Part shown: positions 5,745 to 38,925 of the stretch, in pieces
Layout of the letters: each line of letters begins with the position of its first letter
Position numbering within the stretch: the first letter of the stretch is position 1
NCBI GenBank assembly: GCA_964016885.1
Contig: OZ024743.1
Span: 179,180,001 to 179,244,000 of the forward strand
Source: Eledone cirrhosa
Lineage: Eukaryota
DNA: 64,000 bases
Reading direction: 5' to 3'
Made by a program: the position numbers and the translations under genes
Notes under the pieces: generated by a model
Seen by the model: only the letters and a program-made list of their open reading frames with translations
What the model was told of the DNA's origin: nothing
Databases searched by the model: none

Positions 5745-5908
5745 ATGAAAAGATTCAGCACCCCGACGGCTGAGCTTCCGTCGTTTCGAAACGGCCGGAG
5801 CTCAGCCGTCGGGGTCCTGAATCTTTTCATATTACCCCCCTTACTACCCCAAGTATCGAGTATTATGGTACGTTATGGTCCACCCGGTATCTTACCACAC
5901 CCTCTTTG
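5745..5908 (+). mobile_element. Fold-back HHR-tail element, GAGCTC family (diverged copy)
   Basis: Palindrome 5745-5830 centred on tttcgaaa, then the family tail attaccc..actaccc.aagtat.gagta..tggt.cgttatggtccac. Confidence 0.75.
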
Positions 5909-6203
5909 TGCTTTGTTTTATATATATTTATATAAGGCAAAACAAAAAACAATTTGTTAAGGGTAAATCTTATAAAGCTATCTTTTAAAAATATTAATAC
6001 AAACAGAAAAAAGAGAACTTCTGGGTGATCGGCCGTTGAGTTGGAATTTGGCAGTTTCGAACTCTACCAATGTTACCTCTCGTCAACCTGGAGTCAGAGC
6101 CAAAACGCTGTCTAGTGGTGTACAAGAGGAAAGACAAATTTATAGCAATCAAATATATGTGTATGTATATAGAAAAATGTCCTCACTTTAATTTTAGTTT
6201 GTT

Positions 6204-6502
6204 TTGAGCAATATAGGCTTGTGTTTTGTTGAAAGATCACAGTTCCGATACTATGGACATGTGGGTAGAATGTCTCAGGAAAATATCACTGGACAGATTT
6301 TACAGTCAAAACCAAACGCCAGGAGATCCAGGGGTAGAGCCGGAGCTAGTTGGTTGGATAACATCCATGAGTTTGGCTGGTCAGGCTTTCTGATCCATCC
6401 TGATCAGTTGGTGATGGCTGCTTTTGACAAGACCCGATGGAAGGAATGCATCAGGACACCGCCCCCACGACCATCTCAGTAATAAGTGGACGAAGAAGAA
6501 GG
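6204..6502 (+). mobile_element. 3' fragment of an RTE-type LINE
   Basis: ERSQFRYYGHVGRM...RRSRGR..SWLDNI...AFDKTRWK is a typical RTE C-terminus, followed by a (GAA)n tail. Confidence 0.75.
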
Positions 6503-7383
6503 ATAATTATGTAAAGAATATATATATATATATATATATATATATATATATATCGGCCTGCCCGCCTAGCCAGTGGGATGGCGTCATCATATGGCTAAAA
6601 CATCACGTGCTGTAACCAGCGGCGCCGAATGGCGCCCGACAGACTGGTCGGTCAAGGTGATCAAGGTGATATATATATATTTAATACATTAACAGAGAAA
6701 GCTTTAAGCGATACTCTGACCAACTCTATCTCACTCAACAAACATTAGGATATACCTAAGTATAATCCCAATTAAGTGTTTGGGGTGCTAACTATATAGT
6801 ATTCCGTGGAAAGTTGGTTGTATTATTTTATATTAGACATAATTAAATAAACCTCTCTTTCTTTCCATACGATCGTTTCGTTATAAGATTTCTACAAGTT
6901 GGGATAAATAATGTCCAAGTTATGTAGAAACTTGTATATAATCCATAGATATACACACAAGCGAGCCCTTATAACTCATCATTAGATGCCCATGCAATAT
7001 CGATATAAAAAACTACATCGGTATTAATAATTAGTGATGGTCTCCGTCAGTGCTAGAAAGACAGCTAGATTCGAAAAGCCAGTAGTCCTTCAAAAAGAAA
7101 ATTCACACTGTCCCCAAAAGGGAAAGGCGAGGTCATCGTAAAATATAAAATAATATACACTCTGGTCATTGAAGCCTGTTAGGTATTTTAACCACGTGTT
7201 TAAGAACTCAATTGGATATTAAACAAATAAATATATGTATGTACCATCTATACACACATAGAGATATTTAAAAAAATAATAAATATATGTACGTACTATC
7301 TATACATACATATAGGTATTTTCTCAGGCAAAGTATATATATATGACAAGTAAGTATGTTTTGAAACAGTGAGCAGGTTTGAA

Positions 7384-7636
7384 ATTAGAAAATAGAATAG
7401 CTTTCACCGTATTTTTTGACTAAATAAATTTTAGTCTGATAATGGGGTTTAGAACCCTCAGTTAAAGATGTATTACTGTAATGGTAGCACAGTGGTCTGG
7501 ATAACCAAAGATGTGGGTTCGACTCCCATGTACGTCAATACTCATCTTTTTCCATTTAACTGAGGGTTCTAAACCCTATTATCAGACTAAAATTTATTTA
7601 GTCAAAAATACAGTGAAAGCTATTCTATTTTCTAAT
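7384..7636. repeat. ~82-bp inverted repeats (7384-7466 / 7555-7636) enclosing a tRNA-like sequence
   Basis: The arms are reverse complements with few mismatches. The right arm ends at (TA)n. Confidence 0.85.
7467..7537 (+). tRNA. tRNA-like cloverleaf (pseudo-tRNA or SINE head; loop CTGGATA, apparent anticodon GGA)
   Basis: Acceptor gatgtat/gtacgtc, D arm ctgt-aatggta-gcac, anticodon arm tggt/acca, T arm gtggg-ttcgact-cccat, then T5 at 7547-7551. The D and anticodon stems have mismatches. Confidence 0.6.
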
Positions 7637-7969
7637 ATATATATATATATATATATATATATTCTTCTGGTTTTATAATTTTATAAATGTTTACCAATAG
7701 AGAGAGAGAGACTCGGTTTCTAACATAGATACAAGACTCTCTCATTGGAATTTAAACAACATCAATTAAGTAGATATGCATACATGTCTGCATGTATGGA
7801 CGTGTGTGCGGGTATGGATGTTAATGTATGTGTGGATGTGGATGTTTTGAGTTATATGTGTACATGTGCATATGCTTTGCATCTGCATATGTGTATATGC
7901 AGTTATTGGGGTCGATTTTTCCCTCCATCAAATTATTGGCCTTGTGCCTAAATCAGAAACCATTATTAA

Positions 7970-36280: not shown

Positions 36281-36518
36281 ATGAACACGTAAGACCCCGA
36301 CGGCTGAGCTCCATATATATATGAACACGTAAGACCCCGACGGCTGAGCTCCAGCCGTTTCGACGGCTAATTCTGAATTAACCCAGAATTAGCCGTCGAA
36401 ACGGCTTGAGCTCAGCCGTCGGGGTCTTACCTGTTCCTATTACCCACTCTACTACCCTACGTATTGAGTACTTTGGTGCGTTATGGTCCACTTGGTTCCT
36501 TACCACATTTCCTTCGTT
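36281..36518 (+). mobile_element. Fold-back HHR-tail element, GAGCTC family, with 40-bp duplication of the inverted arm end
   Basis: gaacacgtaagaccccgacggctgagctcca occurs twice; palindrome centred at about 36378. Confidence 0.85.
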
Positions 36519-36666
36519 ATATATATATATATATACTTGTGTATAATGGTAGCTATGGTGCTTCCATAGGCGGTATGTCAAAATTAGCACACAATATTCA
36601 GCAGAATACAGTGTAGATAGTATAAAGAAAACGAAAAATCAGTGATGCATCTTGTTCAATTTTTTG

Positions 36667-36757
36667 CTTGTTACAATTGTTTCGCCGGCAGGTAGCTCTA
36701 GACATGAGCCCTGTATGGGTCTGGCTGATTCTACGGCTGCAGGTTCCTTTAGACACG
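36667..36757 (-). ncRNA. pLTR hammerhead, degenerate copy (core CTAAAGGA)
   Basis: Homologous to 42411-42501. Confidence 0.45.
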
Positions 36758-38102
36758 GGTAGTTCGTTCGGAGCAAATGTTATCACTGGGGTGTTATAAA
36801 AAAATACCCTAAAAAAACCTCTTCCACTCTTGTCATGCCATTGGCCGTTGTTGTTCCAGGTCAATTTAAGCTCTGGTCACTATTTACTGCTACACGGGTC
36901 ATCAGCCATTTTCCGTCCAACACATTTCAATGGAGTCATGCTGGGTTCGGTATCTCACACGTCTCTTCACACTCAAGTGCATGCAACCACAAATACAAAT
37001 ACACACACACATATACACATATGTACGCATACATGCGTAGACACACACACACCCACACACACACATATATATATACACACACACACACTCTCCCTCACTT
37101 CCACAGACCCAGACACACCCACTTCTAGATACAGACTGCCACAAGCCTGTTAATGCCAGCCTATGTGGCGCCATATATCCGGTCCGACAGGCATGGCCTA
37201 CGTAAACATACACATATACACATACATACCTATATAGATATATATATATATATATACACTCATACACACACACACATATATATATATATATATATTTACA
37301 CACACATGCACACACATACATACAAAATATACATACGTACACAAAATTACATACACACATGCATACACACACACATATATATATATATATATATATAGAA
37401 AAAAACATTACATGCATACGCGCACCCACACACATACATACATATATACATGCAGACATATATACATCTACATATACATACGCACACGGACTGCCACGTG
37501 CAGACACCTGCACATATGCATATTTGCTTACACACACATGTTTCCATATATACATATATAAACAAAACCATAAATTAAAAATACATTATATAATAAAAAA
37601 AACACAATATACCATAAAATAACGGTAAAATAACAACATAAAATATCAATATAGTATACAATATAATATATATATATATCTACATATACACATGCACATA
37701 CATTCATACATACATATACGGATATATACAATGGATATATGATAAAATAATAAAAACAATAGTAATAAAATGTATATATAATCCATATATAATCATCCGT
37801 ACACATTCCTGTTAGATGTACATAAACATATACATGTATACACAAATACACATACACATATATAGAGGCCCACATATGCATACACCTGAACCCACACACA
37901 TATATATATATATATATACATACGCACCCACCTACACACACATACTCATACGTAGCTATACATATATACACTCACACACACATATATATATATATATATA
38001 TATATATATATATATATATATATATATATATATATATATATATATATATATATATATATATATATATATATATATATATATATATATATATATATATATA
38101 TT

Positions 38103-38925
38103 TAGGAACAAGTATGACCCCGATGGCAGAGCTCAAGCCGTTTCGACGGCTAATTCTGGACTAAATAAGAATTTTTGCCTGATAAATAAATAGCCGAACT
38201 TCACAGGGGATAATTCCATATATGGGAAGATAGTAATTGTCAAAAGGATTGGTCAAAAGTTTGTTGTAAAGACAGTAGATTCTATCATGGCATTTAGTTG
38301 GAGGTAAGGGTAGCTGAACTTGCCGGTAGAACAATGAGGGAGTCGGGGAAACCCAGTCGAGCATTGAAAGTGAAATCTATACAGCAGATTCTAAGGATAG
38401 TGTATCGAAGGTCGAAAAAAGTGTACTGGAGAAGGGGAGGGGGGAGTTGAAAGAATAGGTAAATCGAAAAGGAGTAAACAAAAAAGCCATTTTAAAAATG
38501 AGGAAATAAATATATAAAAAACAATTTCTGGTTACTACTCCATCCCCACAATCACCAAATCTCTCATTGGTATTGCTAAGCTATAGAAAAGTTTAGTGGG
38601 TGGAGAAAAATACTAAATACGAGATTGTAGTGAAAGAATTTTATAAAGCCATCTTTGGCATGATAGAATCATCTGTCTTTACAACAAACTTTTGACCAAT
38701 CCTTTTGACAATTACTATCTTCCCATATATGGAATTACCCCCCTGAGAAGTTCGGCTATTTATTTACCAGGCTAAAAATTCTTATTTAGTCCACAATTAG
38801 CCGTCAAAACGGCTTGAGCTCTGCCGTCGGGGTCATACTTGTTCCTATTACCCACTCTACTACCCTAAGTATTGAGTACTTTGGTGCGTATTGGTTCATT
38901 TGGTTCATACCACATTTACTTCGTT
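38103..38925 (+). mobile_element. Longer GAGCTC-family insertion nested in the PLE 3'UTR; 187-bp inverted arms contain whole HHRs
   Basis: Arms 38103-38289 / 38659-38846. The right arm reads acccc-CTGAGAA-g..cggcta...tagccg.c-(A)AAA-cggct tgagctc tgccg-TC-ggggt (38737-38833). Confidence 0.8.

Follow-up and report, generated by a model that had tools for sequence, protein, structure and literature searches.

Insertions of Penelope-like elements (PLEs) with inverted pseudo-long terminal repeats (pseudo-LTRs) and a tail on one side only have been published (PMC8557442, PMC3846280, PMC2377424), and the accessible portions of these reports, which like those of the other papers cited below are the basis of our comparisons, ascribe the inverted structure to endonuclease resolution or to self-priming of antisense RNA. 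For the Poseidon protein of Anolis, assayed in vitro, uncut RNA was the main template, and the accessible text gives 0 RNA reads ending at the ribozyme cut (PMC11167929). Here we analyse 64,000 nucleotides of the Eledone cirrhosa genome (contig OZ024743.1, positions 179,180,001 to 179,244,000, forward strand; "the window" is this whole stretch), which hold six copies of a PLE family, the GAGCTC family, that share the 3' half of a hammerhead ribozyme. The short mirror-image inserts of this family are dead-end copies of a PLE. Most are probably head-to-head pairs of reverse transcripts that end where reverse transcriptase (RT) ran off the 5' end of its RNA, at a capped start that we place at a base called A140; a smaller number probably end where it ran off at the ribozyme's own cut. 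The genome would thus preserve a record of both RNA ends. The question touched is how PLEs make pseudo-LTRs and inverted ends, and what role the ribozyme has in this.

Six head-to-head inserts in the window

Positions within the family are given as d, the count of bases back from the tail end TTCGTTA (d1). The tail-bearing arm (T) has its 3' end at d1 and the tailless arm (S) at TTCCTA, d80. The predicted ribozyme cut lies between C100 and G99, stem III spans d118-101, the GAAA box d122-119 and the 3' strand of stem II d130-123; loop II lies above d130 and the CUGA core near d183. The copies and the landmarks of copy 6 are as follows.

5744..5917, copy 1, of a diverged subfamily: S on the minus strand, 5744-5787; T on the plus strand, ~5786-5917 (right end approximate)
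21055..21214, copy 2: T on the minus strand, 21055-21155, to d113; S on the plus strand, from A140 (21155) to TTCCCA
29763..29956, copy 3: T on the minus strand to A140 (29902), d140; S on the plus strand from G134 (29903), d134
33078..33269, copy 4: S on the minus strand, 33078-33131, d134-135; T on the plus strand, 33131-~33269, d135-136
36280..36519, copy 5: S on the minus strand, 36320-36375, d136; a 7-base filler, 36376-36382; T on the plus strand, 36383-36519, d137
38103..38926, copy 6, of the read-through class: S on the minus strand, 38103-38656, to d636 in the 3' untranslated region (UTR); T on the plus strand, 38656-38926, to d270
38737..38833, plus strand: type I hammerhead of copy 6, core CUGAGAA at 38743-38749, with a long loop on stem II
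38786..38792, plus strand: initiator-like TTAGTCC of copy 6, in loop II, with A140, the putative capped RNA start, at 38788
38842-38847 (TTCCTA) and 38920-38926 (TTCGTTA), plus strand: the fixed 3' ends in copy 6, putative RT starts of S and T

All six copies consist of head-to-head T and S arms flanked by (TA)n or simple repeats. The arms of copy 1 meet at TCGA (5786-5789) of GTCGAAAC, at about d123/123, and those of copy 2 at T d113 and S d139-140; the split of copy 3 is ambiguous over 4 bases of microhomology, and copy 5 carries an additional S stub on the minus strand (36280-36311, d80-112), followed by a TA run. Five of the six junctions fall at d113-140, and the CUGA half (d183) is absent from five of the six copies.

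The preliminary description, made from the letters of the window, had reported six GAGCTC copies, and all are present where it placed them. Their inverted 5' sides are likewise real, although in copies 2 (21056) and 3 (29764) it is the tail arm that occupies the minus strand, and the shared tail, which it put at ~90 bp, measures 79 bases past the S end. It had located the breakpoints at stem II and GAAA; they are indeed close to GAAA, but four of the five fall within loop II, at a distance of 12-18 bases on its upstream side. The copy at 38.1 kb does break further upstream (d636/d270), yet its "long stem II" has 8 bp and carries a loop of 36-38 bases, and the whole hammerhead ascribed to it is damaged on both strands, by GAAA to AAAA (38806-38809) and a C3.A8 core on the plus strand, where the stem III loop is GAGCTC and the predicted cut lies at 38828/38829, and by CUGUGAA on the minus strand.

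Arms stop in loop II of the ribozyme

Arms were sampled from the first 100 tail matches on contig 1 (95 loci), nine stretches adjoining the window, and the window itself. From 290 arm hits we kept 259 (148 T, 111 S), chosen solely by their 3' tail or position; 31 were excluded as duplicates, for odd 3' ends, or because score or identity was low. In this sample S arms that end short of about d112 go undetected, ends called by alignment may overshoot by a few bases, and long pairs are undercounted, as divergence from the rulers shortened some long arms. Two 3' ends are fixed: 136 of the 290 hits finish at d1 and 110 at d80.

The 5' ends of the arms cluster more than chance would allow. Across d80-131, which includes stem III, GAAA and the 3' strand of stem II, 0.5-0.9% of arms stop per base; across d132-146 the rate is 5.4% for T (78 of the 96 arms that reach d132) and 6.0% for S (85 of 94), and past d146 it is 0.2-0.8%. 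About one arm in ten (11%) passes d146. The breakpoint hot spot thus lies in loop II, not in a helix. Genome-wide exact matching, with patterns of 22 (d134), 16 (d140) and 22 letters (d146) that count matching subfamilies only, finds 53,415 arms reaching d134, 34,340 reaching d140 and 5,877 reaching d146.

Stops in this region are also found outside simple pairs. At 6 of 30 loci where the tail continues into the UTR, cDNAs derived from the element body stop at d125-143, and at L113 and at L143/L144 three arms within one insertion stop at d137-143. Within 95 pairs the S arm is more than 2 bases longer than the T arm in 34, shorter in 32 and within 2 bases in 29, against 19.8 pairs within 2 bases after shuffling (p 0.01). 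Tail arms show no pile-up at the S start, as a collision there would give; only four solo arms end at d82.

A140 as a probable capped RNA start

The stop peak falls on the A of an initiator-like YTAGTCC, A140, a motif that we take to fit the initiator consensus and that is invariant, while the bases upstream of it vary. A purine precedes A140 in 7,826 arms, and in the first 100 listed it is G in 87; in the young GAATT subfamilies alone, G outnumbers A by 37 to 9 among the matches listed. None of 30 inspected loci with a purine before A140 runs on into upstream element sequence, and in 12 of 25 G cases inspected by eye neither the partner arm nor the target could be the source. Arms that read through A140 have a different base there: 60 T, 6 C and 0 G (n=66), and T in 100 of the 100 GAAAT-type read-through arms listed. 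Subfamilies of this older GAAAT type account for roughly half of the A140 arms but have only 224 read-through matches; perhaps their long copies are scarcer, or have decayed further.

The same base recurs where both arms end at A140. At 1,227 loci the two arms do so no more than 3 bases apart, and among the 50 listed the one-base spacers are C or G in 22 and A or T in 3. Spacers of the form CAG, CTG or CG, which imply an extra G on both arms, number 9 against 0 of the form GnC. The C141 variant (6 of 66) accounts for only a few of the one-base spacers and for none of these nine.

We infer from these patterns that A140 is probably the 5' end of a capped RNA, a putative start site of RNA polymerase II, and that the extra G is likely the expected mark of a copied cap. 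In L1, untemplated G has been read as cap copying (PMC9341517), and a fly element transcript begins at an initiator in the upstream pseudo-LTR (PMC2377424). The ATG of the full element is 231 bases downstream of A140. A144 was considered as a second start and rejected, since it shows no G excess (1 of 28) and many 144 calls are 140 plus microhomology. An origin of the peak in a splice acceptor or branch point was dismissed because the ends include the AG.

A minor class ends at the predicted ribozyme cut

A purine precedes G99 in 502 arms and the control position T101 in 240. Inspection showed true truncation in 17 of 30 cases at G99; at T101 the figure was 5 of 30 when judged by eye and 6 by script (p 0.003). 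Of the 17 truncations, 10-11 have a partner arm that likewise ends at G99. Genome-wide, both arms end near G99 at 402 loci; among the 50 listed, 27 are exact with filler, 8 spacerless (ambiguous), 12 have templated spacers and 3 are one-base-ambiguous. One-base spacers in this set are A or T in 11 and C or G in 1, the reverse of A140 (Fisher p 5e-6). As the end left by the cut is uncapped and takes A or T, G99 serves as an internal control for the extra G at A140. So many ends at the predicted cut point, indirectly, to cleavage by the ribozyme in vivo, and the agreement of partners suggests that both arms of one insertion copied the same RNA or RNA class.

In an intact relative (L063:5028-5126) the ribozyme itself folds into the three-way junction of a type I hammerhead, its three helices surrounding the conserved core (C3/U3-U-G-A-N-G8/A8-A, GAAA and UH); the core is of the U3-A8 form, reported as a variant in PLEs (PMC4209133). 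Among the 66 read-through arms the core is U3-A8 in 29 and the mismatched C3.A8 in 35, with a pattern that did not seek canonical C3-G8. A non-cleaving C3.A8 subfamily was proposed and abandoned: none of 11 TCATAC-type G99 hits is double-ended, yet 4 of the 50 listed double-ended G99 loci are TCATAC-type. No Rfam ribozyme model matched the window or L063, where the hits were sub-threshold and microRNA-like hairpins.

A probable run-off mechanism and points against it

The fixed 3' ends of T and S have their counterparts in the pair of internal start sites found in vitro for the Anolis element (PMC11167929), and we propose that two target-primed cDNAs are made. In this scheme the PLE protein would nick both strands of a (TA)n site, and the two nicks would serve as primers for cDNA synthesis, each at its own internal site within the 5' pseudo-LTR portion of a single RNA. 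The two cDNAs would run off the same RNA 5' end, after ~60 and ~140 bases, with the cap copied as C and often followed by an untemplated A, and the two cDNA 3' ends would then be joined, often after a microhomology loss of 1-6 bases. If the downstream product of ribozyme cleavage served as template, both arms would end at G99; arms past d146 may come from longer, multimeric or circular templates or from a template jump. An RNA that begins at A140 has no CUGA half, so the ribozyme would be unable to fold in the template; the half described earlier as deleted was likely never present in it.

An added strong-stop step is possible but rather unlikely. Here a cDNA begun in the 5' pseudo-LTR and run off at the cap after 60 or 140 bases would jump to the RNA 3' end, whose ribozyme-cut 41-base terminal repeat (A140-C100) would be the landing region; a jump that succeeded would yield a pseudo-LTR or a tandem, and one that failed a palindrome, of which there are tens of thousands.

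Several observations weigh against run-off at a capped A140. In 13 of the 25 inspected G cases the partner arm, filler or target could supply the G, and by our estimate only ~20% of the arms that reach A140 bear it. The purine control at C136 gives 87 A and 13 G in 100, a comparison confounded by the AGTACAG subfamily variant. By eye, we recognised no downstream promoter element at A140. The peak is about 12 bases wide (exact-word counts 162 at d134, 80 at d140 and 18 at d146), so that trimming or multiple starts must be assumed, and a weak AU-rich hairpin within loop II has its 3' base near d138, where a stall is possible. The two arms of a pair show only a weak correlation in length (Spearman 0.19, p 0.06). 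Finally, the anchor of the arm sample is biased to young subfamilies and comes from one contig of one genome.

Alternative explanations

The preliminary description had proposed that the folded ribozyme is a hot spot for RT stalling or template switching. The hot spot inside the ribozyme is real, and its check on whether breakpoints are uniform returned the d132-146 peak; stalling on a whole-ribozyme template, whether where the loop II hairpin has its base or elsewhere, is nonetheless improbable. The position of the peak inside the ribozyme, its breadth and the end of the small hairpin near d138 would suit it. RT passed the stronger, GC-rich helices at the background rate, however, with stem III, GAAA and stem II at 0.5-0.9% per base and the peak at A140 with its untemplated G; the extra G occurs only there, the filler at G99 is A or T, and arms beyond d146 decay slowly.

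We give as little credence to snap-back of one cDNA, or to self-priming of antisense RNA as proposed for rotifer elements (PMC3846280). The palindromes are near-perfect, 29 of 95 pairs have ends no more than 2 bases apart, and short templated fillers exist, all as snap-back would produce. A T arm that snaps back cannot yield a longer S arm, however, unless deletions followed, and 34 of 95 pairs do have the longer arm on the S side, copies 2 and 6 being examples from the window; the tailless end closes a full-length element in L063, spacers of 0-1 base occur at G99, and the junction marks, the G before A140 and the ribozyme cut, belong to sense RNA.

That A140 is instead a processed RNA 5' end, the extra G reflecting a preference of the enzyme for adding G at this sequence, is also improbable. 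The one promoter feature seen is the initiator-like motif, which leaves room for such processing, but the base added at the uncapped ribozyme cut is A or T rather than G, YTAGTCC stays constant while the bases upstream vary, and the fly element starts within its pseudo-LTR (PMC2377424).

The question of a single founder, raised by the preliminary description together with a check for monophyly of the short copies, was put to the junctions and to a tree of T arms (79 short and 55 long over 130 columns, weakly resolved, arms below d132 omitted). The 97 head-to-head pairs hold 86 junction types, of which a few recur two or three times, and every subfamily has junctions that arose independently. 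On the tree the short or long label changes 27 times against 39 after shuffling, with at least 11 changes forced, and none of 200 bootstrap trees unites the short T arms as one clade. Eleven short copies are identical over 130 bases to the full-length element of L063, and have different junctions. Common ancestry with a shared internal junction, the mark of a miniature inverted-repeat transposable element (MITE) or founder family, was not found; "MITE-like" fits the shape of the inserts and not their origin, as they are newly made from the autonomous element. A non-autonomous family spread from one or a few founders, for which the recurring junction types and the partial clustering of the label speak, is therefore largely refuted by the independent junctions, the tree and the L063-identical copies, and is very unlikely, although secondary copying of some short inserts may occur.

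The parent element

Longer copies elsewhere in the genome extend into an RT with a C-terminal GIY-YIG domain, which bears out the Penelope-like origin proposed earlier for the family. One of them, L063, holds an intact single frame of 722 codons with RWR, DKT, YRDD, CxCX5C, YIG, CxxC and CxH; Atlas look-alikes of its protein carry RVT_1, GIY-YIG and HTH_animal at 0.95-0.99, and sequence searches of Pfam, NCBIfam and PDB gave no match. By motifs, rather than by an RT tree, we class the family as a Hydra-type PLE with C-terminal GIY-YIG; the Naiad clade, with N-terminal GIY-YIG and no canonical ribozyme, is excluded by the C-terminal YIG and the presence of the ribozyme.

The hallmarks of endonuclease-bearing (EN+) PLEs are all found, namely a pseudo-LTR from partial tandems, an inverted 5'-truncated copy and a one-sided tail. 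A 30-mer from the tail matches the genome exactly 25,095 times, hence at least 25,095 tail copies. By exact matching, the tail leads on to the 5' UTR at 342 sites, some of them within tandem arrays of 3.54 kb. Four-unit arrays of this 3.54-kb unit lie at G000:C1:91.47-91.49 Mb and at 437.20-437.21 Mb. The young full-length element of L063 (5219-8257), with its open frame, has a tandem-plus-inverted layout that terminates at the tailless site, and a 13-codon upstream frame lies in the tail before the main ATG (L063:5182-5222), in the putative 5' UTR. Solo "tail-only" inserts at L059, L062, L116 and L123 are the exact stretch between the two start sites.

Other features of the window

AT-rich palindromes of other families lie at 21346-21915 (570 bp), 24648-26323 (1.7 kb) and 26260-26625 (370 bp); some begin at (TA)n, and they are possibly head-to-head inserts of other PLE families. 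On the minus strand, 41214-41648 matches the RT region of the GAGCTC family weakly (58% over 446 bases), as a distant PLE relic. A short inverted-repeat element (7384-7636) surrounds a tRNA-like 71-mer (7467-7537) that scores 43 bits against the Rfam tRNA model. Elements with 113- and 212-bp terminal inverted repeats adjoin TA runs at 28702-29618 and 42357-43725, respectively; the first begins TACGAGG and ends CCTCGTA, termini that presumably resemble a Tc1/mariner end. A long array of 9-18-base repeats, 3n-periodic, spans ~56370-60000.

Comparison with known systems

If run-off at a capped A140 holds, the genomic copies by themselves locate a transcription start with single-base precision, and they show germ-line cutting by the ribozyme and the copying of its cut product; the junctions would further speak for a capped template of sense orientation and hint at a single RNA behind both arms. 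Such hairpins would then be liable to be mis-filed as MITEs or microRNA precursors.

Two well-known processes are close in principle. In L1 twin priming, two primers on one RNA yield an inversion whose inverted part does not duplicate the forward part, whereas both Eledone arms copy the same stretch. The minus-strand strong-stop DNA of LTR elements is a short cDNA that runs off a capped 5' end; the Eledone arms appear to be primed at the target, with no tRNA.

The element type, the inverted layout, the tail and internal initiation are already published. In the literature searched, from which most subscription papers and supplements were absent, none of the papers interprets the head-to-head junction as run-off, whether from a capped start or from the ribozyme cut. 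As far as the accessible account goes, the family shares with the Hydra clade (PMC8557442) DKT, the CxCX5C linker, CxxC, CxH and a C-terminal YIG, together with the ribozyme, (TA)n targets and a single open frame. That clade is marked by RWK, where L063 has RWR; it is generally below 3 kb, against a 3.54-kb unit with a 3' UTR above 0.7 kb here, and its tail is usually 30-40 bases, against 79. The published inverted pseudo-LTR insertions (PMC8557442, PMC3846280, PMC2377424) resemble ours in their head-to-head 5'-truncated copies, one-sided tail and partial tandems, but most Eledone inserts are two short arms only, with a sharp common end point. Non-LTR retrozymes (PMC7229834; 10.64898/2026.07.22.740005) have in common with the family a type I hammerhead and a link to PLEs, yet they are tandem repeats with whole ribozymes, while the Eledone inserts are palindromes with half a ribozyme. 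The nearest parallel to our proposed initiation is the Anolis Poseidon protein in vitro (PMC11167929), for which two internal RT start sites bound the tail and both strands of AT-rich targets are cut and extended; the Eledone genome differs from the available part of that account in a minor class of inserts that ends exactly at the predicted ribozyme cut.

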